Shown in pieces: positions 18,746 through 60,047 of a stretch of DNA of 64,000 nt. A model generated the notes under the pieces. It did no database searches. It was not told the origin of the DNA and saw only the letters and a list, made by a program, of their open reading frames with translations. The translations under genes were made by a program, and so were the position numbers. This DNA is from a virus. Its lineage: Duplodnaviria; Caudoviricetes. Every line of letters starts with the position of its first letter. The first letter of the stretch is position 1. The DNA lies in IMG/VR virus record IMGVR_UViG_3300028048_000063, positions 64,001-128,000 of that record; one strand, given 5' to 3'.

Positions 18746-21700
18746 TTAAATATCCCCCTCTGTTATTTTAATATATACATCACCACCAATGGCATCTTTA
18801 TCGATACAATAGAAATAAAGATATATATCATCTCCTCCGTTTTGAATATGAGCACTTTGAAGAACTAATCCACTTTGTGCAAACATAACTGGGTTATTAT
18901 TTACCAATTCAAATACATAGTTTTTATTGTCATCAAGATCAAAACTAAAGTCTTTATTTGATTTGCTAAGATATTTTTGTGCTTGATCTTGGAATGGACT
19001 TGTAGCACCTTCGCTAAAGTCAGATGAGCTTAGATATATCCTTAATTTATTTGCTGCTGGTATTTCAGAAGCTGTAATTAATGCCTCTAATTCACCATTA
19101 ATAACCTTACTTAATGCACCAATAGATGCTGGTGTAAATGAAGCAAATGCAAACGTATTTAAGAAGCTCTGTACATCACTAGGTATAGATAGAGTTACAG
19201 CGAAAGGCATTTGCATAATACCTTCGGATGATAAGTAGTCTGTGCTTGTATTCCACTCACCCTCAGGTGATCCTTCTTGCATATAAAGACTCATTTCTTC
19301 TATATCTTCTATCATTGACATAAATATTCCAGCTGTACTAATTTCTATTGGAGCCATACAAATGAGTTCCATTTTTTCATCTCCAAGGTTAGCCCATAAA
19401 TCTTGAATATAATATGTATATTCTTCGCCCATATTAAATGAGAAATGAAGTAATGTCTTTTGATTGAATGGTATTAAACCTACAGCAACGATATCACCAG
19501 CTTGTGGGTTTTCTGGAGGTGTTTCGCCCTCTATAGGTGTATATGTCTTTTCAACCCATTCACCTGAAACATATTGTTTAAGCAAATATGTCATAACACA
19601 GAACCAATACATACCCTCTGTTGGCTCACTTGGTTCACTTTCTTCGGTAACTTGTACAGATAATTGTTCCCAACTTGAACCATTATATATTAAGAAATCA
19701 GGAGCACCTTCAAAAGAAATATAGAATGTATGATCTGGTACAATTTCTGTTGTTGTAATATTTGGATCTGATGTAATATCAAAAGCTATTGAAGATGTAG
19801 AAAGACCGTCACTTAAATATTCTTTACTTTCCTCTATATCTGCTTCTTTGTAATATTGTCCTTCAACAAAAGGAATGGATGCACTCTTAAGGTTATCTGC
19901 CCACCAAGATGTATGGTATAAGGATTGTATTGTATCATCGCTATCTAATTCTTCTGGGTTACCATTATATATACCTGTAGACTTCATCCAACCAGATTGA
20001 ATACCATATCGTAAATAGTCACCTGTTGAATAAAGGTATGCAGATATATCACTTGAGCCGTCGCTAAAAGCCCTCCAACCAAGTATTGCCAACAATTTAT
20101 TATCATCTTCAGGCTTCATGAGCATGATATATAAACTAGAATCTTCATGCCCAGTATATGCTAACATAACCATTGATTCTCTATATTCGTTTTTGAATAA
20201 TTTTGCTTGTGAGCCACCATCAAACATATATGTCAAGCCATAAACATTTGTTGTAGAAACTAATTGCCAATCACTTCCATCATATTGATATAAATTTTGT
20301 GTATCATTTGTATCATACCAGAATTGATCTTGTTGTGGATCGCTTGGTCGACTTCCTGTTTGTGGAGAGAACTCGTTCATAGATCCAGATGTATAATAAT
20401 AGAAATTATAATCATCTCTCTCTGGGTTCGGTGTCTTAGCTACCTTATAATAATTTCCGTCAGAAATAGTTATCATATTTGAACATGTAATCCAACTGTT
20501 TCCGAGATACTTCTTTAAAGTACCATTGTCGTACCAATAATCATAATTTTGTGGATCAGCTGGCTCAGAATCGGTATATGTTAATTCACGTACTTTGTAT
20601 CTTATTTTGTCTGCGTCTTGATCTGGTGAATAATTATCCCAGTCATAATTATCAATGTCGGTTAAACGTGTAGATGCGTCTATACATAACTTGTTTAATT
20701 TTGTTCCTACTTCAAAAGCACTAATTTCTGTTTCTGGTACTTCTTTAAATGGAGCGTTCTCTAACTCAAAATAGTCAGATGTGCCTGAACCGCCGCCAAT
20801 ATCTTGAGCAGAAAAGCTAACTCCAGGCTCTCTTTCACCCTCTTTACCAATTTGTATAGAAAGTAGCTTTTGTGCGCCTTCACCCATAAATATTACTGTA
20901 GAGAACATTACCGTATCATATCCTGGCATAGACATTTTTGTTATTTTTGGTGCATACAAAGGTTGTATAACATCTTGTCCACCTTCTTCTCCAACTTTAA
21001 TATTTACTTTAATAAAAGAAATTTCTGTATTTACTGCTTCTTCAAATTCTTCTGTAGTAATACTTAATTCACCAATAGGTTCAAGCGTCTCACCACTTAT
21101 AACACCGATTGTTTCTATTACAGCAACACCCTCACCTGGTGCACCGCTTCCGTCTATAGCTTTATATTCTTCTCCGTCATAGAAATAGATCTTGCCAGAG
21201 ATATATTGAGATGCGGCTGCAGTTCCAACAATTATTCCATTCCAAGATGGTGGGTTAGTATCTGTTATTGTATTAATAGTTCTTTCACTTGAACTAGAAA
21301 TATTTATAGTATAATCACCATTAGCATCTAAATTATGCCAACCAGCAGTTGCTAAATCTGGCATATCTTCTGACATATAAATAACATCAAAATCACCTAA
21401 TGCTCCAGTATCGCTAAGAACAAATACCCCGTATACACCATTATCTGTAAATCCATATATTAAAGGTGATTCTTCACTAGAACCTGCCATTAACAATCCT
21501 TCCTCATATTGCGTCCAATCAACATTTTGTAAGAATGTTAATAATTGACTTTCTTTGCTTGTATCAAAGTGTATCTTATCTCCATTAGAAAGTGTTTGTC
21601 CTATTGTTAATGCTTCAAGTCCACTACCTTCACCCGTGTGTCTGTAGTAAGTATTAGCGACAGGTGTAAAGCCAACTGCTTCTAAATCTTGATTGATAAT

Positions 21701-48908: not shown

Positions 48909-49210
48909 CTAAAAATGTAAATTTGGGTTATTTTATGTGGTTTTGAAAAAACCTGTTCTTTCTTTTATTTTATTTTTCTTTCTTTTCGAAAAAGAAACAA
49001 AACAGAGTACTACGTAGTACTACAGAGTTACAAATAAAACTACTAAAAAAATATAGTATCAAATTTGTTGAACTACGAAGTAGTGAAAACAATTTCGGGG
49101 GAACTATCTAGAATAATAGAAGAAATAATAGGAGTTAAGAGGGAAAAAAGAGGAAAGAAGGAGTATTTGAATAAATATTTTAAAAAAATGAAAAAAAATA
49201 CAAATTTAAA

Positions 49211-49239
49211 TTGATTTTCTGCATAGTATCCAGTATAAT
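49211..49239 (+). promoter_or_regulatory. sigmaA-type promoter (rightward, RNA polymerase operon)
   Basis: TTGATT-17-TATAAT with TATCCAG just before the -10. Confidence 0.7.
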
Positions 49240-49325
49240 ATTAGTAGTTGAAGTTGAGTAGACTTTGACTAAAAAAATACTTAATAAAAGGAGGCATCCT
49301 ACCACAGGAATATGACAAGATAATT

Positions 49326-49736
49326 ATGAAAAGACCAGGCAGCAACCCAATTAACTTGAAAGATTTTGTAAACACTAATATTAAGACTAATCCAAATACA
49401 AATATAACAGTCAAATTAGTAAATACAGAAACAAACGAAAAAATTTTTATAGGAAGTAGCAACAAAAATACGACAACGTATTATACAGTAATTTATGATC
49501 CTCAACATACTTCAGCTTCAGCTGGTAATGCTTATTATTGCAATAGGATTAAAGACGTAGCAGAAGTAATAAACTTTTTATTTGAAAATGAAGACATATA
49601 CGCTACTAAAATACAATCACTAAACTCAAATAATGTTCTTGATCAACCAGATACTATTTCTTTAGATGATAAAAGATATGAATATCTTTACAGAGAATTA
49701 GTTATAGATCCAGACGATGATATATACAACGATTAA
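49326..49736 (+). CDS. Hypothetical protein (136 aa)
   Basis: ORF between the promoter and the RNAP gene. Confidence 0.55.
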   Translation: MKRPGSNPINLKDFVNTNIKTNPNTNITVKLVNTETNEKIFIGSSNKNTTTYYTVIYDPQHTSASAGNAYYCNRIKDVAEVINFLFENEDIYATKIQSLNSNNVLDQPDTISLDDKRYEYLYRELVIDPDDDIYND

Positions 49737-49786
49737 TACATATACACAAAGATAAATATATAAAAAAGGATACAAAATTATAAATA

Positions 49787-52696
49787 ATGGCAGTAGTTCA
49801 AAATTTATATCAAGTTTATAAATTACCAGCTTCAATGTTGGTAAAAAATGACTGTAAGATAGACGATTACAGATTCTCCAAAGCTCTCAAAGAGGGCAAT
49901 GTTGTTTCAATAGGAGATAATTTAGTCTTTCAACAGTTACGTTATATCCATGGCGATTATAGAAATCACACGGAGCTTTTTAATTATGTTACAAAATTAA
50001 GAAGTGTTATGCACAAATACAAAAAAGATGGCATGTTTAGAGAAGCTCGTGTTCTTAATCAAAGAATTTCAAAAGTATTATTTGTACAAGACATAGTAAA
50101 TGTTTATATTGATGGCAAAAAATCTGATTTCCACGCATTCAGAACTAAAGGTTTTGATTTAAATGGTATTCACTACGTATATTTATGTAGTGGTAGCGGA
50201 CAAATTCGTAGAAATACAGCTACATTTATTAATGAGAAATATAGAGACAGAGTCGTAAAAACATTAAACTGTGGATTAGATGAAAAGACATCTGATTTTG
50301 TATTAGCTAAGTATAGTGCATATTTTGCACTAGCATTCTCTTCTATACTTTGGGTTAGAACACCTCGAGTTTGTGTCATTAAGGATTTCTACAATACATT
50401 AAAACAAGAACCTGTAGATTTTATTTATCATGACGAAAATGATAGTGGAAAAGCTAAGATTGAAGAAAGAAAAATGGACTTAGAATTAAACTGCGCCGAT
50501 GGACAAGGATTAGTAGATCCAGAATTTGCTAAACTTTGGTCAGAGGATATGAAGCTAAAATATACACCTTGTTCTTTTGTTGTACGTTCTTGCTTCATTA
50601 AAGGTAATCTTGCAACATTTGATTTTAAAGCTTATGCTCATGAACACGGTATCACAACAATTAGAGACCGTTGGGGTAAGGTTTATAATATTGATGAAAT
50701 AGACGTCCTTCTTTCCGAATCTCAATTTAAAACCTATAAGTATTATAGCAGTTGGCAAGAATACTGCGACTATACCACAAAAGGTAATATTCACTGGGGC
50801 GTAGCTCGTTATAATAAAATAGAAGATGAAGAATATGTTTTAGCAAATTATCAATACATTCAAGCATTATCTCTCGATACAGAAGATATTCAAAAATTAA
50901 TAGCTCCAACAGTAGAATGGATCAAACAAATTTGTTCTGGAGATCTTCTCTACGCCATGCTTTACGCATTTGGAACTAAATCACAAAATGTTGAATATAA
51001 TAATCTTTACGGATCTGCTAAAACAACAGCAATGCGTGCCTTAATAAAAAATGCTAATTTTTTAGACGATACTTATATCCAACAAAAACTCTATAAAAAT
51101 ATTACAGAGTCAATTAATCATGCAAAACTTGGTAAGATTTGGATCCGTGGTAATTATCAATTTATGGTCTCAGATCCTGTCGCACAATGTCAAGCCGCAC
51201 TTGGACTTCCAGTCACAGGCGTCTTAAAACGTGACGAAGTATGGTCTGACTTCTGGACAAAACGTGAGGTCAAAAAACTCGACCTCTGCAGATCACCAAT
51301 GATCGACGTCCACGAACACAATCCATGCACCGTTCATTACTCAGAAGAAGCTTCAAAATGGTTAAAGTATCTCACAAGTGGTATAGTATTCTCAATTTAT
51401 GATACTTCAACATTTAGAGCTGAAGATGCAGACTTCGATGGTGATATAGTTCTATCAACAGATAACGAGTTTTTCCTTAAAGGAGCTCATAAAGATCATA
51501 ATATCATTACATACGAGAAAGGTTTAGCAACCCCAGCAAAAATGACCGTAAATAACATAACTTCAACAGTTATGAAAGGATTTGGTACAGGTGTTGGTGG
51601 ATTCTCAAACACAGCAACAATTCTCTATGCAATGGCAGCAATCTTTAACAAACCAGGACATGAAGATCAATATAACGAGATAATGACACGTATTAAACTT
51701 CTCCGTGAAATCGTGGGCCAAGAAATTGACCGTATTAAAGGCGCCGATAAACCATCACTCCCTCCAGAGTGGAAAAAAATCGAAAAAATCGCCCCAAACG
51801 ACTCACAAGACGAAGTCATACGCAAAATGCGCCGCAATGCGATGGTTGTATCTAAAAAACCATACTTCTTTAGATATCTCTATCCAGAGCTAAACGCACA
51901 ATATAAACAATTTGAGTCATCATATAATCAAATTAGTCGTGACATGTTTGGTATAAAGTTTAAAAAACTTCTCATGAAGGAAAATAAAACCGAAGAAGAA
52001 AAAACTCTTATTCGTCGTTACCAAAAATATTCACCATTAATTACAGCACCTTGCACAATGAATAAACTCTGTAAAGAGTTTGAATCAATAGATTTCGATA
52101 TAAAGTATGCACGTGATTTTTCTGGCGGGACAGGATCAAAAGATAAACACCCAGTTAAATCCATGCTTCCAACTTTTGAGTCGGAATTTGAACCAATATT
52201 TGATCAAACAAAACTAGATACAGTTCGTCAAATGTATCGCGGTTTTTCCGACAAAAAACAGATCAAACACCTATCAAACATACTCACTCAAAATCTTATT
52301 CAAGAGGATGAGTATCAAGAATATCGCTCAACAATCTATGACGAAATCCTCGAGCGCCTTAGACAACAAATGGTAGATGCGGACATATCCGATAAAGAGT
52401 TTTTATATTATTCTTATAAACTCTCTAAACTCTACGCCTCATTTAATTGGGGTTTTGTCTGGGAGGTTCTCGATGATCATATCTTAACCTACATCCCTCA
52501 AGGACAAACATATTGCCCTGTTAAGGATCCAGATGGTGAATATTCATATCTCGGCAATACATATTCACTTAAAGACATAACAAAATTTGATCTCTCAACA
52601 ACAGAAGATACCGATTTTGATTACGAGATAGATTCTGATGAGTTTAACTTTACAACATTCGCCAACGGTTTTGACGAAGAAGAAGATTTTAATTAA
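49787..52696 (+). CDS. YonO-like single-subunit (double-psi-beta-barrel) DNA-dependent RNA polymerase
   Basis: SGQIR, DGQG, RSP and catalytic ADFDGD motifs; EIDRIKG; SPbeta-like context. Confidence 0.88.
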   Translation: MAVVQNLYQVYKLPASMLVKNDCKIDDYRFSKALKEGNVVSIGDNLVFQQLRYIHGDYRNHTELFNYVTKLRSVMHKYKKDGMFREARVLNQRISKVLFVQDIVNVYIDGKKSDFHAFRTKGFDLNGIHYVYLCSGSGQIRRNTATFINEKYRDRVVKTLNCGLDEKTSDFVLAKYSAYFALAFSSILWVRTPRVCVIKDFYNTLKQEPVDFIYHDENDSGKAKIEERKMDLELNCADGQGLVDPEFAKLWSEDMKLKYTPCSFVVRSCFIKGNLATFDFKAYAHEHGITTIRDRWGKVYNIDEIDVLLSESQFKTYKYYSSWQEYCDYTTKGNIHWGVARYNKIEDEEYVLANYQYIQALSLDTEDIQKLIAPTVEWIKQICSGDLLYAMLYAFGTKSQNVEYNNLYGSAKTTAMRALIKNANFLDDTYIQQKLYKNITESINHAKLGKIWIRGNYQFMVSDPVAQCQAALGLPVTGVLKRDEVWSDFWTKREVKKLDLCRSPMIDVHEHNPCTVHYSEEASKWLKYLTSGIVFSIYDTSTFRAEDADFDGDIVLSTDNEFFLKGAHKDHNIITYEKGLATPAKMTVNNITSTVMKGFGTGVGGFSNTATILYAMAAIFNKPGHEDQYNEIMTRIKLLREIVGQEIDRIKGADKPSLPPEWKKIEKIAPNDSQDEVIRKMRRNAMVVSKKPYFFRYLYPELNAQYKQFESSYNQISRDMFGIKFKKLLMKENKTEEEKTLIRRYQKYSPLITAPCTMNKLCKEFESIDFDIKYARDFSGGTGSKDKHPVKSMLPTFESEFEPIFDQTKLDTVRQMYRGFSDKKQIKHLSNILTQNLIQEDEYQEYRSTIYDEILERLRQQMVDADISDKEFLYYSYKLSKLYASFNWGFVWEVLDDHILTYIPQGQTYCPVKDPDGEYSYLGNTYSLKDITKFDLSTTEDTDFDYEIDSDEFNFTTFANGFDEEEDFN

Positions 52697-52717
52697 AAAA
52701 AGGAGAAAAAGTAGAAA

Positions 52718-53479
52718 ATGGACACAAAAGACAATAAAAAACTAAACGCTCCACAAAAGGAGTTCCTAGAATTACAAACAAAAGAGTTACAGACAATTTA
52801 TGAGGCTTATAAGGAAATAGTCTCTTCTGATGAATTTGCTGCACAGCAAACCCCAGAGGCTCAAACTGCCTATATAAAAGAAGTTCTCGCCCAAAAACTT
52901 TCCTCTTCATTCTCCTTCACACCAGCCGTTGCTGAACGTATTGCCACACATATTCTTGACCTCTTCCCACAAGTTCAAGATATAGAGACACAGTATATCA
53001 TAAACACAGATACAGACATAGATGCAAACACGGCGACACAACCAGCCACGCCGACAATCTTTATCACACTTAAAGATTACGAGAGATTTATAGAAAAGAT
53101 CCAGTTAGCAAACACTCCTCCAACAGAGCAGTTGAAGTCACTTCTCTTTTCATTCATGGTTTTCTATCGTGATAACTATCATCCAACAGGATGGGTTCGC
53201 TATGATCGTAAAAATATATTCTATCTCGCCGGACTTTCATCCCTCTCTACACAAAAACAAGAGAAACTTGTAAATAAACTTCACGATCATTTTGGTCTTG
53301 ATATGCGCGTAGTGGGATCTAATCAACCAATTCCTTGTTTTAAGATTAATTGGCTTTATGATCAAGACGATGTTTCAACTCCAAAAAATCCACTTCTCTC
53401 TTTCGGTCCGTTTACACCTAAAAATCTTAAACAAATAATAACAAAGGCTAATAATACAATGGAGGATATACAACAATAA
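52718..53479 (+). CDS. Hypothetical protein
   Basis: 253-aa ORF with AGGAGA SD. Confidence 0.7.
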   Translation: MDTKDNKKLNAPQKEFLELQTKELQTIYEAYKEIVSSDEFAAQQTPEAQTAYIKEVLAQKLSSSFSFTPAVAERIATHILDLFPQVQDIETQYIINTDTDIDANTATQPATPTIFITLKDYERFIEKIQLANTPPTEQLKSLLFSFMVFYRDNYHPTGWVRYDRKNIFYLAGLSSLSTQKQEKLVNKLHDHFGLDMRVVGSNQPIPCFKINWLYDQDDVSTPKNPLLSFGPFTPKNLKQIITKANNTMEDIQQ

Positions 53480-54090
53480 TGCTAAATAAGATTAAAAATT
53501 TATTTTCAAAACTTAGACAACGCCGTCTAGCTCGCAATACCGCAATAATTCTCTACGGAATTTTTGAGAAAAAAGATCCAGATTTTTCTGGTCCTTCAAC
53601 ACCTCACCCATCTCCAATAGAATTAATGCAACACTATACCCCAGTAACAATTGCTCCAACACGAGAAGATGCAATGAAAGTTATAGATAAACTTATCTAT
53701 TTTAATCATTTTGATCATTTTGCCCTCTGGTGCGATTCTCATGGTTATACAGATACTTGTGCATGGATATATCCATCTTGGACACAATATAAACGCGACG
53801 TCCTCACTCTCGACACAATAAAAACAGAAAGCGAGAAATATTCCGCCTTTGCACTCACATATTCACGTAAGGATATATCTAGTATTATACGTATGTTTTC
53901 ACACTGCGAGCCACTTCTTCTTCCTTATGAGAAAGACATTGAACTACAAGCTTATCTTAATCGTACCCCAATTCTTTCAGGGCATCTCGCTTCAATAATT
54001 GCCGCAGATACAGTGGACGGTGCTAAAATAAAAAATGCTATTACACAAATTCAAAAAATCACCGAAACACAACCCTCAGAAAAAATTTAG
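53479..54090 (+). CDS. Hypothetical protein
   Basis: 203-aa ORF, translationally coupled, GGAGG SD. Confidence 0.7.
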   Translation: MLNKIKNLFSKLRQRRLARNTAIILYGIFEKKDPDFSGPSTPHPSPIELMQHYTPVTIAPTREDAMKVIDKLIYFNHFDHFALWCDSHGYTDTCAWIYPSWTQYKRDVLTLDTIKTESEKYSAFALTYSRKDISSIIRMFSHCEPLLLPYEKDIELQAYLNRTPILSGHLASIIAADTVDGAKIKNAITQIQKITETQPSEKI

Positions 54091-54109
54091 AAGAAAATTA
54101 AAAATTTAG

Positions 54110-54140
54110 TTGACGATTGTTTTATTATCCAGTATAATAT
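54110..54140 (+). promoter_or_regulatory. sigmaA-type promoter of the DUF2828/vWA gene
   Basis: TTGACG ... TATCCAG-TATATAAT. Confidence 0.65.
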
Positions 54141-54229
54141 ACACAGATAACATGAAATAGTTATCGCCAATAAACCAAAACTAAACCTAAAAAATAAAAA
54201 TATATACAAAAAAGGAGACATAGACAGAT

Positions 54230-55879
54230 ATGGATACACAAGGAACAGTAAACGCATACGAATACGATCAAGCACAACAACTCGATGAAATCATTTCCGA
54301 GGAGACAAAAACACCTCATACAGATTTCTTAACCGCAATGGCACGAGTTGCTGCCTTAAAGCGTACAGAAAACGGTGCTCCAGCATTATCCACATCTCTC
54401 TCTGCACTCTTAGATTTATTCGGAGAGATAGGTGCTCTCCGCTGTCGCTCAGAAGCAGATATTATTAGTCTCTTCCTCGCAGCATACGGCGAAGATAAAA
54501 ACCTCGCTCTCAAAACACTCTTCTACGCAAGGGATATCCGTGGTTCTCAAGGTCTCGGTGAACGCCGCACTTTCCGTGTAATTCTCCGCTACCTCGCACT
54601 CAACCACCCAGATGACATAGCTCACCTCATTCCTCTAATTCCATTCTTTGGACGCTGGGATGATCTCTTTGTCCTCCTCGATACCCCTCTAGAAGATACA
54701 ACTCTCGACTTGATCGCGGAGCAGTTTGAATCAGACCTCCAAAATCTCAATTCAAATCACCTCCAAAATATATCACTTTTAGCAAAGTGGTTGCCATCCG
54801 TGAATGCTTCCTCCAAGGCAACACGTGATACCGCAAAACACCTCCTAAAAAAAGGCTTACATCTTTCACAAAAAGACTATCGCCATAAACTTTCTGCTCT
54901 TCGAGCTGCTCTCCGCGTGATAGAAAAACAAATGTCATCAAATAACTGGTCCGATATTAACTACGAATCAGTTCCATCATACGCAGCACTTCGTTATAAA
55001 CTAGCGTTCGCTCGTCATGACCAAGAACGTTATGAAGCTTATCTCGAAGCACTAATGCATGGCGAAGCAAAGATCCACGCAGATACCCTCTATCCTTATG
55101 ATATCGTTCGTGATCTTTTTAGTGAGTCTTTCTGGAGTACAAACTTCACCGAAGATGCTATACAACTCGCCACAGCACAACAACTTTGGAATGCACTTCC
55201 AAATTACCTCGCCGACACACCTAACGCCGATCAACGTTATCTCGTCATGGCAGATACCTCCGGCTCAATGTTTGACCGCGTTGGATCTATCTATAGATCT
55301 ACATCTCTCGCCGTATATTTCGCCGAACGTACAACAGGGTACTTTGCAAATACATTCCTAACGTTTACCGACAAACCAAAACTCGTTAAACTATCTCCGG
55401 AACTTTCTCTTAAAGAGAAACTCCAAATAGTCCTTAACCCAGATTATGTCGGTTACTCAACAAACCTCGACCGCGCTTTCGCAACAGTCCTTGCCGCTGC
55501 CGTCGCTGCTAAAGTTCCTCAATCCGAACTTCCAACAGCTATCCTCGTAATCTCTGATATGGAAATCGACCAAGCCGTAGATTTCTACGATCACGCCGAC
55601 AACCAGACCGAACAAGACGTGGATCCACGCTCGGCAACTTTCACAGAACGTTGGACACAAAAATTTGCAGAAGCAGGTTATACCCTTCCAAATATCGTCT
55701 ACTGGAACGTAAATGCACGTAACAATACATTCCACGCAACAGAAACAGATAACGTTCGCTTTGTCTCTGGTTCTTCCGCTGCAACTTTTACAACTCTCTG
55801 TAAAACAAACGGAGCAACCCCAACCGAAACAATGCTTGCAACTATCCTTGACGATAGATATAGAGATATACATATCTAG
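54230..55879 (+). CDS. DUF2828-type TROVE-like helical + vWA protein (Ro60-related, putative RNA-binding)
   Basis: TENG, RDIRG.G.GER, GRWDDL, AKWLP, L.PYDI, MIDAS motif DTSGSM, ISDME, YWNV, SG.S. Confidence 0.82.
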   Translation: MDTQGTVNAYEYDQAQQLDEIISEETKTPHTDFLTAMARVAALKRTENGAPALSTSLSALLDLFGEIGALRCRSEADIISLFLAAYGEDKNLALKTLFYARDIRGSQGLGERRTFRVILRYLALNHPDDIAHLIPLIPFFGRWDDLFVLLDTPLEDTTLDLIAEQFESDLQNLNSNHLQNISLLAKWLPSVNASSKATRDTAKHLLKKGLHLSQKDYRHKLSALRAALRVIEKQMSSNNWSDINYESVPSYAALRYKLAFARHDQERYEAYLEALMHGEAKIHADTLYPYDIVRDLFSESFWSTNFTEDAIQLATAQQLWNALPNYLADTPNADQRYLVMADTSGSMFDRVGSIYRSTSLAVYFAERTTGYFANTFLTFTDKPKLVKLSPELSLKEKLQIVLNPDYVGYSTNLDRAFATVLAAAVAAKVPQSELPTAILVISDMEIDQAVDFYDHADNQTEQDVDPRSATFTERWTQKFAEAGYTLPNIVYWNVNARNNTFHATETDNVRFVSGSSAATFTTLCKTNGATPTETMLATILDDRYRDIHI

Positions 55880-55886
55880 AAAACGA

Positions 55887-55948
55887 TCGACGCATACAGC
55901 AGCTATTTAAAAGGAAGATCATTTTTAATAACTATAATACCGCGTCGA
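55887..55948 (+). ncRNA. Small RNA unit 1 downstream of the Ro-like gene
   Basis: Closing stem TCGACGC/GCGTCGA, then ATACAGCA; internal TTAAAAG-GAAGATCA-TTTTTAA hairpin. Confidence 0.6.
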
Positions 55949-55960
55949 GATATATAAAGA

Positions 55961-56034
55961 AAGGCACACACAGCAATATGATGTTAAAAGATCACTTTTA
56001 GAACCGCAATTTCTAATTCCCTCCATCGTGCCTT
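55961..56034 (+). ncRNA. Small RNA unit 2 downstream of the Ro-like gene
   Basis: Closing stem AAGGCAC/GTGCCTT, then ACACAGCA; internal TAAAAG-ATCA-CTTTTA hairpin. Confidence 0.6.
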
Positions 56035-56040
56035 GTTAAA

Positions 56041-56070
56041 ACTCCCTCACTTCGGTGGGGGTGTTTTTTT
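56041..56070 (+). terminator. Intrinsic terminator
   Basis: CCCTCAC-TTCG-GTGGGGG followed by a T7 run. Confidence 0.85.
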
Positions 56071-56083
56071 ATACCCGCTTAGG

Positions 56084-56232
56084 TATAATTATATATATCT
56101 ATATATGTGCGTATACCTGTACGGGTATATTTTTATATATATGTATCTGCATATATCTATATAGATCTGCATATAAACAGGCAATATATATGCATATGTC
56201 TACCTATATGTATATAGGGATATATATAAATA
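56084..56232. repeat. (TA)n-rich low-complexity, quasi-palindromic tract
   Basis: Dense TATATA/ATATAT with several short palindromes. Confidence 0.6.
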
Positions 56233-56448
56233 CCCCCACCCCCTTTTTACCTGGAAAAGTAGATATTTGGATATAGAGAGAGGGACACGGATAGATAGAA
56301 AGATATAGGTCGGGTTCGATGGACAACGTCATACTATATATTTTAATTTTATTTTTTATTTTAAAAATGTAAATTACATATTTACATATATTTTATTTTG
56401 TTTAAGCGGAGGTAGCAACCATGGCTATCTACTATCATTTAAAAATAG

Positions 56449-56898
56449 GTGATTTTTATGTTTAATATGTTAAAAAAACCTTATTATTTTGATTTAGACG
56501 GGGTTCTAGCGGATTTCAACGGCGAGATAAACGCCGTCGAGAGATTTGAACAAGAAAAAGATTTCTTTTTCAATCTCAAACCAATAAAAAAGAATCTTGA
56601 CGAAGTCAAAAAATTGATCAACAATAATAATATAGTTTATATTATTACAGCAAGTCCTAATGCAAGATGTGATAATGATAAAGTTCATTGGCTCAGGAAA
56701 TATCTTCCTGAAATCCAAAGAAAGAACATTATCATTCTCCGCAACGGACAAAGCAAAGTCAAATTCATGAGGAGCCGACATGGCATCCTTATGGATGACT
56801 ACAGCAAAAATTGCCGCGAATGGATTACAAAACGTGGCAATACTAGTTGTAAAATAACTATTGAATTTGATGTTCAATATTATTTAAAGCAACTTTAA
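56449..56898 (+). CDS. HAD-family 5'(3')-deoxyribonucleotidase
   Basis: FDLDGVLADF (DxD), ITAS, K, LMDD. Confidence 0.85.
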   Translation: MIFMFNMLKKPYYFDLDGVLADFNGEINAVERFEQEKDFFFNLKPIKKNLDEVKKLINNNNIVYIITASPNARCDNDKVHWLRKYLPEIQRKNIIILRNGQSKVKFMRSRHGILMDDYSKNCREWITKRGNTSCKITIEFDVQYYLKQL

Positions 56899-56934
56899 AA
56901 GAGTGGTGGTGCAATTGCATCACCCTACTTTTAT

Positions 56935-58968
56935 GCCCACATAGGACACGTCCCTACGTGAAAGTCGTAGACGTGTGGGTGGATATAAGCGTAAGCTGAA
57001 CCAACGTCCAAGTCGCGGTATTCCCGCGGTGTATACAAGCACGTATACACAAAGCGGGGTGCGATTACTGCGGCGTAGCATAGCTTTTGCTGTGCGACTC
57101 CGGCGGAGTATAAACAGCCAACCCGGCAGGGTAAAATGTGGGGTAAGCGTCACCCCGAGAGCGCGCCGAACAGGTGTCGTTAGTTATGACGATACTGTAG
57201 TAGGACAATACCGCACTCTTCAACGACCTGTCTGGATCGATAGCCTAAGGGTTATTGTGAAAGATGGACTCACGAAAGCTAGTCTCCGGACTAGAGGAGT
57301 AGGAGTGTGAAAATAACTGTCGTCACGCGACTTATCATCGTTGTGACACGTCCTGGATAAGGGCCATAGGGATTGGCGAGATCTCTTGGGTTATCTATTC
57401 TATATATCAAATTCGTGTCGATATATAGACGTCATGTGCTAAAAGGCGATTGGCGAAAAGAATAGCGGCTATGCATTGGTCGTAAGGAGGAGTGAAAAAG
57501 AGACCCGAGACAGCGGTATCCAAAGTAACTCGGTCGCAACGCAGACAGTAGGGAAGGTAACAACCCTGTACAAGCTGATAAGCGTCTTAGAATAGCGGCT
57601 GCATGAAAAGTGCGATGTAACGAGCAACCCCTTGATAAGGGGAGAGCAGGGAATAAGTGCTAGTGATCTAGATAGGTAACTATCTGGATTGCATTACAGC
57701 CGAACTCTACTCTGCTTCCAAATCTGGTGGCGACACCAGTGAGTAGAAGTCTGTGTTACGCTCCTGAATAACGGGGAGGATGGGACGATCTCCATCCGTA
57801 TTACGAGTATCTCTCGGAGTACAATTCCTACACACCCAGAGCTGTCCTTGGTATGGGGGTGATGGGTAGGATCCCGGCAACAGAACACAAAGGCAAACCC
57901 TGGAAGGCCAACGTTCCAGGTTATTGTCCGAATTAAATAACGAGTGGTGCAGCAGCAATGCACCAAAAGAAGAATGCGACTGACTGTTTATCGGTTTGCA
58001 GGACGCTTTTGGCAAAAAAAGAGCACCCCGTGTAGGATGATTATAATGTCTATACCAAACGGTATGTCGGTGCAAGCTGATGTATACGAGGAGATCGATA
58101 GACTAAAGGGGATTTCCACTAGAAGCCAAGCTCACCATGGCGCACAGGAGATTAGACCAGACTTGGGGAGGATAGATACCCCGAGGCAACGTGTATCGCT
58201 ACACGGAGCCCATCAACATATATGAGAATATATGTAACAGCGTATAATTTATTATATGTGAGCAGTAATGTGAGTGGATGGGTGTTTAAATAACCGAATA
58301 AGTCACGCAGAGTAGGTATTAGGTACAAAAGAATGATAACCGATAGGTCTCAAAAGACAATAAGGTTTGATTCACCTAATAGTGAACGGTGAGCGAAACG
58401 GCAGCGAGTAAGCTACTATATACAACAGCTTATATTGGTATCCCTAGTTTTCTAGGTGGTGCCGTATAGACGGGCGTATTAAAGTGTAATCCGTAAGGAT
58501 TGCTGTAGTAAGGTTATATAAGACTTTATGTCGAGATGTAACTGTAGCGTCCTCCGACCGCGGAGGAAGGGCGATAAGCCTAAAAGGGAAGCTTTGTCTA
58601 AGGATAGTTTATATATAAGGGTATGTCATACTCATCGAGTGCGCCGCAGTAATGTGGTAGTATCAACAACTATAGGTAACTATAGCGGGGAGTATGAACT
58701 ATCTGGACAAATGACGTGACCAACCAGCTGAATAGGTTAGGTGAGCCCCCTGGAGGGGCGGAAGAGACAAGAGCGAGTGAGTTAAGCAAGAAGTAGTGTA
58801 AAGTAGCGCTTGATGTTCGTCGTAACATCTTAACTAGGAGTGGCCGAGTAACTTCCTAGAGTGCAAAATATACTATGGATTGCCGACTATAGGATCTCGT
58901 AACTCCAGACGCCTACATACCGTTCGTATGTATACTGCAATCGCAGGAGAGTTTGTGAATGATTGTTT
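56935..58968 (+). ncRNA. Candidate giant structured non-coding RNA (~2.0 kb)
   Basis: No credible ORF, visibly higher GC than the flanks, more than 25 hairpins with plus-strand G-U pairs and GNRA/UNCG loops; 3' end set by the twister cleavage site; 5' end approximate. Confidence 0.75.
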
Positions 58969-59017
58969 AATGTGGCCATGGACGGTGACAAGCCCGTGTA
59001 AACACAGAGTCAAACAA
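58963..59017 (+). ncRNA. Twister ribozyme, type P1
   Basis: P1 TTGTT/AACAA, U^AA, P2 TGTG/CACA, GCC, P4 ACGG/CCGT, L4 TGACAAGC, GTAAA, GAGTCA (T1 TGAC/GTCA); predicted cut between 58968 and 58969. Confidence 0.9.
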
Positions 59018-59045
59018 AAAACTAAAACAAAAAAAGGAGAAAAAA

Positions 59046-60047
59046 ATGAGATTATTAGTGTTAAAGTGGTATGATACCACAAAAGATGAAGAAGAAAAAG
59101 TAACTGCATTAAAAAATGCAGGCTTTAAAATCCTAGGTAAAGAAAATACCTTTGCCGAAGGCAGAAATTACAAAGTCGAATTACCAAATGCGACTTTAGA
59201 AAACGAAAAAAAGACTTTTTATGAAGTTTTAAACGAGTTACAAACTCAAAAAGAAAAACAAGCAGCCCTTGCAAGAGCCGAAGCAGAAAAAAAAGCTGCT
59301 ATCGAAAGAGCAAGAGTTGAAGCAGAAAAAGCAAAACAAATTGATTGGCTCCACAAAATAATTAAACCAGAAGAAACATACGAAATAAAATACACCTATA
59401 TTGGTTGCCCAGATGGGTATAATGACGAATATAGAATGGATATCGGAAACATTCTTTCCGTATCCATTGGAGATCATTATGATTGGGGAGCCATGGAAGG
59501 TGAGTTCCAAAACTTTACTTGTAAGGGTAAAGAGTTGCTCACCCAATTAAGACTCCATCATCAAGACAGATGGGACAATGACAAAGAAGTCCAAGATTAT
59601 ATCATCGAATATATGATAAATGTATATATCCTTATCGGACTTCCAGGAAGTGGTAAAACTACAATAGCAAAAAAATACCACTATAATGTGGTATCATCCG
59701 ATGCAATAAGAAAAGAGCTATATGGCTCCGAAGAAGCCCAAGGTGATGGGCGTGTTGTATTCAAAACATTTTATGATAAAATGGAAAGAATACTATATAA
59801 TGGCAGCAGTGTTGTTTGCGATGCTACAAACATTAGCATCAAAGCTAGAGCACAGGCAATTAACTGTGCAAAAAAATACGGCACAAGAATTGTCGGTATA
59901 TGGATCAAAAAAGATGCAGACACATGTATCGAGCAACAAAAAAACAGGGATAGACAAGTCCCTGTAGATGTCATAAAAAATATGGAATCTCGCTTCGAAG
60001 TACCAACATTAGAAGAAGGATTCGATGATATAATTATCATAAGTTAA
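59046..60047 (+). CDS. Unknown N-terminal domain fused to an AAA_33 polynucleotide-kinase-like P-loop domain
   Basis: GLPGSGKTT, SSDAIR, DATN...R, R.RQVP..VI, P.LEEGFD. Confidence 0.8.
   Translation: MRLLVLKWYDTTKDEEEKVTALKNAGFKILGKENTFAEGRNYKVELPNATLENEKKTFYEVLNELQTQKEKQAALARAEAEKKAAIERARVEAEKAKQIDWLHKIIKPEETYEIKYTYIGCPDGYNDEYRMDIGNILSVSIGDHYDWGAMEGEFQNFTCKGKELLTQLRLHHQDRWDNDKEVQDYIIEYMINVYILIGLPGSGKTTIAKKYHYNVVSSDAIRKELYGSEEAQGDGRVVFKTFYDKMERILYNGSSVVCDATNISIKARAQAINCAKKYGTRIVGIWIKKDADTCIEQQKNRDRQVPVDVIKNMESRFEVPTLEEGFDDIIIIS

Follow-up and report, generated by a model that had tools for sequence, protein, structure and literature searches.

A candidate ribozyme-terminated long structured RNA in an exchangeable locus of gut phages

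The plus strand of a 150,079-bp phage record from IMG/VR contains, at positions 56933-58968, a candidate long structured non-coding RNA of 2,036 nt, the 3' end of which is the predicted cleavage point of a twister ribozyme. Positions here and below are those of the window, i.e., the whole 64,000-nt stretch that was analysed, which corresponds to bases 64001-128000 of the record; the record is rated 100% complete. Our main reading, to which we assign a probability of roughly 0.6, is that the region specifies a functional, ribozyme-terminated long structured RNA that is made of a conserved core and a lineage-specific periphery and acts as RNA. Judged from sequence comparison, it is a structured RNA of a small undescribed family, similar in kind to the ROOL and GOLLD RNAs of phages but not a member of either; no description of such an RNA was found in the literature.

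Genomic setting, composition and folding

Position ~49000 separates minus-strand genes, on its left, from plus-strand genes, on its right. The rightward group includes the gene for a YonO/RdRP-like single-chain RNA polymerase (49787-52696, 969 aa, PF05183), which has hundreds of relatives with 55-92% identity in gut assemblies and is the marker of a large and for the most part undescribed clade of 130-155-kb phages; the gene is well suited to gathering further versions of the variable RNA locus. The upstream neighbour of the RNA is a gene for a Ro60-like RNA-binding protein with DUF2828 and DUF7788 (54230-55879, plus strand; Pfam E-values of 2e-41 and 5e-27, and a match to PHROG 850, 'RNA-binding protein', with E 1e-121). 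This gene is kept in all close relatives, and its mycobacteriophage counterparts are annotated as 'Ro-like RNA binding protein'. The closest Ro-like proteins in GenBank (40% identity) come from two human-gut phage fragments with tRNA arrays upstream of the Ro-like gene (L002:1-1700 and L003:660-1700); the arrays include ~120-nt matches to the tRNA model, uncalled by ARAGORN, which could be intron-containing tRNAs or Y-RNA-like tRNA mimics.

On the 3' side of the terminator of the Ro-like gene lies an AT-rich stretch (56069-56270), conserved in every relative, that probably contains the promoter of the variable cassette next to it; it draws several weak hits, on the two strands, from models of AT-rich miRNA hairpins, which are noise from palindromic AT repeats. 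The final sequence in common with the closest relatives is an AT-rich intergenic stretch at 56300-56399 (plus strand), which we infer to be the promoter region of the cassette. The cassette opens with a gene for an NT5C-type 5'-nucleotidase (56449-56898, plus strand; Pfam PF06941, E 9e-12), which is missing from the closest relatives and is probably co-transcribed with the RNA. A weak terminator-like hairpin followed by CTACTTTTAT (56905-56924, plus strand) stands between the two. Downstream of the RNA is the gene for a 333-aa protein (59046-60047, plus strand), the C-terminal half of which is a polynucleotide-kinase-type P-loop kinase (AAA_33, E 1e-22, and a PHROG match to polynucleotide kinase), the N-terminal half having no assignment. 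In a search of 15 billion proteins and 5.8 billion clusters, this protein retrieved only itself and kinase-domain relatives of at most 45% identity; atlas look-ups of its N-terminal half and of a 338-aa neighbour gave nothing informative, and the kinase and Ro-like proteins, taken as single queries in IMG/VR, had no match. The PF09414 RNA ligase and RtcB are both absent from the genome, so that a phage-encoded step of sealing or circularising is without support.

Neither strand of the interval 56900-59045 has an open reading frame above ~120-130 codons, either under table 11 or with one stop codon reassigned (TAG=Q, TGA=W or TAA=Q; none of these opens a frame), and a search of the seven longest frames against Pfam and PHROG gives nothing better than E 0.009. 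An earlier, sequence-only reading of this DNA had noticed about 2 kb lacking a usable frame and a G+C content well above the flanks, and both observations stand: no frame appears under the four genetic codes, no protein family is matched, and G+C is 0.45-0.52 along the stretch compared with 0.30-0.37 on its sides. At 0.47 overall, the G+C of 56933-58968 makes it the top 2-kb outlier in the 150-kb genome. Both GC skew and AT skew are positive, and the plus strand is purine-rich.

The most distinctive feature of the stretch is its hairpins. All of those named in the sequence-only reading are present in the sequence, and the strand preference of tetraloops that it had pointed out is pronounced, with eight hairpins on the plus strand and one on the minus strand when only stems of 5 bp or more with a GNRA or UNCG tetraloop are counted. 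Shuffled sequences give 0.8 +/- 0.9 such hairpins (maximum 4 in 300 shuffles), and the rest of the 64-kb window has about 1.1 per 2 kb. Genome-wide, this count ranks first among 2-kb windows, the median being 1 and the next independent window having 4. The predicted fold of 56930-57929 has an energy of -365 kcal/mol on the plus strand (z -5.95) and -303 kcal/mol on the minus strand (z -3.6), and the mean z of 200-nt windows along the plus strand of the RNA is about -2.2, compared with a baseline of -0.8 that was obtained with 150-nt windows. Folding energy alone is not convincing, since some nearby coding stretches likewise have low z. The coding region of NT5C, for example, folds at 56600-56799 with -59 kcal/mol (z -6.6 relative to shuffles), and a similar excess is seen at 59000-59500.

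The reported internal repeat, AGAATAGCGGCT, is also real (12 nt, at 57459 and 57589). The nested and crossing long-range pairs that had been tentatively proposed did not hold up: they are not above chance, as the best long-range complement in the stretch, of 12 nt (57064/58642), was matched or beaten in 21 of 300 shuffles.

The conserved core and the variable locus

Five contigs, L011 to L015, follow the window with 95-98% identity from 49001 to 56399, beyond which they cannot be aligned with it. Directly past this break, each of them that reaches far enough has a gene-free, G+C-rich stretch of ~1.4-2 kb. We distinguish type A, the version of the window; type B, found in L013, L014 and L015 (in the latter as a short downstream part); and a mosaic of types B and E in L011, which has only the first part of type B. 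Type C (L004 and L010) and type D (L008) come from more distant phages. All of the types A-E are purine-rich on the plus strand and have 5-8 GNRA/UNCG hairpins on that strand versus 0-4 on the minus strand. Comparisons by k-mers and by windows found nothing in common between the types, except among A, B and E. In remote relatives, the polymerases of which are ~30% identical to that of the window, the place that the RNA occupies relative to the RdRP-like polymerase gene is taken by an array of 20 tRNAs, with a 21st about 1.5 kb further on (L061:6578-9348 and L064:15659-18429).

Window-based comparison detected one significant motif common to the window and types B/E, and alignments extended it to a series of collinear blocks between 57309 and 57885, broken up by insertions specific to the window. 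The conserved core proper is at 57313-57613 (plus strand), and a distal collinear block, ATCCCGGCAACAGAA (57871-57885, plus strand), is the probable far edge of the core as judged from the alignment. Both RNAs accommodate six helices, set between conserved joining sequences: P0 (57313-18/57389-94), Pa (57395-400/57460-65), Pb (57430-34/57451-55), Pc (57437-39/57446-48), Pd (57466-71/57477-82) and Pe (57601-04/57610-13). These comprise 30 base pairs, of which 20 are the same in the window and in L013, eight differ on both sides and two on one side, in each case with pairing kept; no pair is broken. Helix Pa is altered at all six pairs, from CUAUUC/GAAUAG in the window to UCUAGU/ACUAGA in L013, while its strands abut the conserved blocks GGUUAU, GAAAA and CGGCU. 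The internal repeat, AGAATAGCGGCU, turns out to represent two conserved core elements, one copy being the 3' strand of Pa together with the start of Pd, and the other the lead-in to Pe.

A covariance model built from types B/E alone, i.e., from three sequences with the window left out, matches the window at 57393-57493 with 29.3 bits (E ~3e-7, the E-values being rough), the next match in 14 kb scoring 8.3 bits. A nucleotide profile (nhmmer) and the covariance model R1 recovered no members beyond L011 and L013-L015 in 87 related loci; the family numbers five sequences, namely type A of the window and these four. Other searches with the RNA gave no match in 50,697 phage records (BLASTN), matches to the twister and the NT5C gene only in 89 related loci (BLASTN and nhmmer), and chance matches only in exact-pattern scans, with two patterns from the RNA and with three from the core, the latter run against IMG/VR and against a set of prokaryote genomes with one per species. 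None of these searches turned up a second copy of the RNA, and the RNA, the NT5C gene and the kinase gene of the window are so far unique to one record.

Covariation covers ~30 of the ~620 base pairs that the RNA is predicted to hold. Comparative support is limited to the core (~300-570 nt), and there is none for the ~380 nt on its 5' side or the ~1.1 kb on its 3' side, because the version found in the window is a singleton. In types B and C, substitutions between two near-identical sequences showed no clear preference for the plus-strand fold, and the alignment of four type B sequences is too conserved for covariation.

These data bear on whether the stretch makes one molecule. It could instead, as the sequence-only reading had also allowed, be a cluster of smaller RNAs made from one transcript, with a core RNA of ~300-600 nt next to unrelated hairpin-rich RNAs. 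That would agree with the confinement of conservation between the window and its relatives to 57313-57885, and with the local character of the predicted fold, in which 495 of 623 pairs bridge fewer than 100 nt and those of long range do not exceed chance. The mosaic in L011 suggests modules that move separately, and the tRNA array of remote relatives is itself a set of many small RNAs at the same place. On the other hand, there is no internal ribozyme, tRNA-like element, strong terminator or promoter between the would-be units, and in types A and B, the total lengths of which are similar, the core occupies a comparable relative position. We consider the cluster the main rival to our reading, if an unlikely one. 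The sequence-only reading had proposed a new class of giant phage RNA; describing it as a new family is fair, because part of the RNA is backed by compensatory base-pair changes relative to related phages. With four-fifths of the pairs local and long-range helices not above chance, a single 2,036-nt molecule is a hypothesis.

The twister ribozyme and the 3' end

The proposal that the RNA is released at its 3' end by a ribozyme agrees with a predicted type-P1 twister self-cleaving ribozyme at 58964-59016 (plus strand, Rfam RF03160), which is conserved and covarying. Its predicted cut falls between 58968 and 58969, exactly at the end that had been proposed for the RNA. The match has 45.3 bits, with an E-value of 5e-8 over 3.6 kb and 5e-10 over the genome, and is below the Rfam gathering score of 67.2 bits because the optional P3 hairpin is missing. 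This 3' boundary element shares with the type-P1 twister the conserved core and covarying P1 and P2. The core motifs, namely UAA at the cleavage site (with the cut after its U), AAGCCCG, GUAAA and GAG, are all present and are invariant across 10 phage copies. The element is 98% identical in L013, and is also kept in L004 and in nine more distant phages, the polymerases of which are only 47-48% identical to that of the window at the protein level. P2 and P4 are 100% paired, two P2 pairs having changed on both sides, whereas slid controls are at most 58% paired; P1 covaries across three lineages (UGUU/AACA, GUAU/AUAC and CUGU/ACAG).

Twister cleavage leaves a 2',3'-cyclic phosphate on the upstream product and a 5'-OH on the downstream product. 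In this locus, the RNA would receive the cyclic phosphate and the kinase mRNA would start with a 5'-OH. The ribozyme is no obligatory part of the RNA, as L014 has a type B RNA without a twister. In the L027 group, the twister is found directly before genes with no long RNA upstream. On both counts, the ribozyme is best seen as a transcript-cutting module that happens here to set the 3' end of the RNA.

Several observations on RNA ends were made in the related loci. A twister-P5-like element in L011 (L011:19073-19123; 36 bits, just under the gathering score of 37.6) is located directly upstream of a 145-aa polynucleotide-kinase-type gene (19189-19626), so two differently permuted twisters, in the window and in L011, precede genes of RNA kinases. 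This arrangement hints that the kinase may act on 5'-OH ends made by ribozymes. The gene-free type D stretch contains, at L008:16225-16305, a twister-sister ribozyme (RF02681) that, at 44.9 bits, exceeds its gathering score of 34; the locus is equivalent to that of the RNA in the window. Type C RNA ends, at ~17895-17960 of L004 and likewise in L010, with a tRNA-like minihelix that has a 7-bp acceptor stem and a T-arm with GGUUCGAGUCC, followed by ACCA; ARAGORN makes no call there, and the minihelix may mark an RNA 3' end made by RNase P/Z-type processing instead of a twister.

In another explanation, the stretch is a long structured untranslated region with no function of its own, either the 3' tail of the NT5C message or the leader of the kinase message, or both. 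The tail would shield the NT5C message from 3' exonucleases, and the twister would merely uncouple two messages. Such an arrangement would fit the lack of a visible separate promoter, the twisters that stand directly before genes in the L027 group, and the twister-like element just before the kinase gene in L011. It is at odds with type B, which starts directly after the AT-rich promoter-like region and has no gene upstream, and with the compensatory multi-helix core and the extreme density of GNRA loops, which well exceed what a stabilising tail needs. We regard it as improbable.

Less probable still, to the point of being hard to defend, is that the stretch is decayed or foreign filler DNA, for example dead genes or debris left by recombination, within an accessory region that varies. 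In its favour are a locus that is a hotspot of recombination, a version that is unique to the window, and a G+C unlike the rest of the genome; yet the seven longest frames retain no trace of protein similarity in Pfam or PHROG, and debris would not account for a strand-specific excess of tetraloops, covarying helices and a conserved flanking ribozyme.

Relation to known RNAs and possible role

The stretch had been described as free of rRNA, RNase P, tmRNA and intron hallmarks, and the database searches agree, with the twister as the only exception. At gathering scores, neither ROOL, GOLLD nor any other Rfam family covers the RNA in the window. When 55800-59400 was searched with E-values up to 5, with GOLLD, ROOL and introns among the models, only the sub-threshold twister and AT-rich hairpin noise at 56070-56270 appeared. 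ARAGORN finds no tRNA in the window. Domain 5 of group II introns has an AGC triad, a 2-nt bulge on the 3' side and a GNRA tetraloop. We give next to no credence to a known large ribozyme in disguise, namely a circularly permuted group II intron at 56933-57077, for which GUGCG at 57058 and a hairpin at 56948-56978 with a GAAA-containing loop might speak, since no model of a group II domain, of a group I or other intron or of a non-twister ribozyme matches at E up to 5, the hairpin departs from domain 5 in that its bulge, of 1 nt, is on the 5' side and its loop measures 7 nt, and there is no reverse-transcriptase frame. Group II introns, including the circularly permuted form, were rejected on both the Rfam domain models and the geometry of domain 5.

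Large protein-free structured RNAs are rare, and ROOL and GOLLD have recently been shown to build cages of unknown purpose. Both are phage RNAs of unknown function that are often found near tRNA islands, and GOLLD has one conserved region and one variable region (PMC12286853). Like them, the RNA discussed here is large, protein-free and intricately folded, belongs to a phage, and has one part that is conserved and another that is less so. As for tRNA islands, the window itself has no tRNA, and two remote relatives (L061 and L064) have 20 tRNAs at the corresponding place relative to the polymerase gene. The RNA differs in that it matches neither Rfam model, even at E 5, would be two to three times longer, and ends at a twister; it is known from only five sequences.

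Two other systems invite comparison. The bacterial and phage Y RNAs of the YrlA type, associated with Ro60/Rsr, share with the candidate the position of a structured non-coding RNA beside a Ro60-like gene. Y RNAs are ~100-200 nt long and have a tRNA-like domain and a stem that binds Ro, whereas the RNA in the window is 2 kb long and matches no tRNA-like or Y RNA model. MALAT1 is a long non-coding RNA, the 3' end of which is made by cutting at a small structured element, mascRNA, and not by termination. The likeness, a 3' end produced by cutting at a structured RNA element, is one of analogy only; here a self-cleaving ribozyme would do the cutting, in a bacterial and viral setting, and the two are not taken to be homologous.

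If the main reading of a functional, ribozyme-terminated RNA is right, transcription would proceed rightward from the conserved AT-rich region at ~56300-56400, with the NT5C gene or just after it. The most economical version is co-transcription with NT5C, in which case the weak hairpin at 56905-56924 would be read through. The twister would then cut between 58968 and 58969, and the ~380 nt and ~1.1 kb on the two sides of the core would be lineage-specific decoration of the same molecule. The RNA might organise itself into a scaffold or assembly, or serve as a decoy for host factors that bind or cut RNA. A role at the level of RNA is supported by the setting, an RNA-handling accessory island with the Ro60-like protein and the polynucleotide kinase, and by the tRNA array at the same place in remote relatives, given that ROOL and GOLLD occur near such arrays. 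That near-identical phages have the RNA replaced in the manner of a cassette suggests a possible involvement in phage-host conflict.

A bolder version, which we consider unlikely and put forward with reserve, has a single 2,036-nt RNA built round the core, using its GNRA loops for tertiary or intermolecular contacts in an assembly like those of ROOL and GOLLD, released by the ribozyme, in a locus that is an arms-race hotspot. As one RNA, it would be the largest ornate non-coding RNA known from a phage. Unrelated giant RNAs (types A-E) and tRNA arrays would be replacing one another at this locus between near-identical phages, which would imply a role in countering the RNA-targeting defences of the host.

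A practical limit is that very few members are known so far, all from uncultured phages of the gut. If the main reading is true, it would be a third large phage RNA family, unrelated to ROOL and GOLLD and much longer, with a 3' end made by a ribozyme. Its members would be neighbours of a Ro60-like protein and an RNA kinase, at a site where phages otherwise 95-98% identical exchange one RNA for another, and would offer a tractable system for studying the roles of such RNAs in infection. It would further suggest that phages can exchange giant RNAs as accessory cargo, just as they do tRNA arrays.
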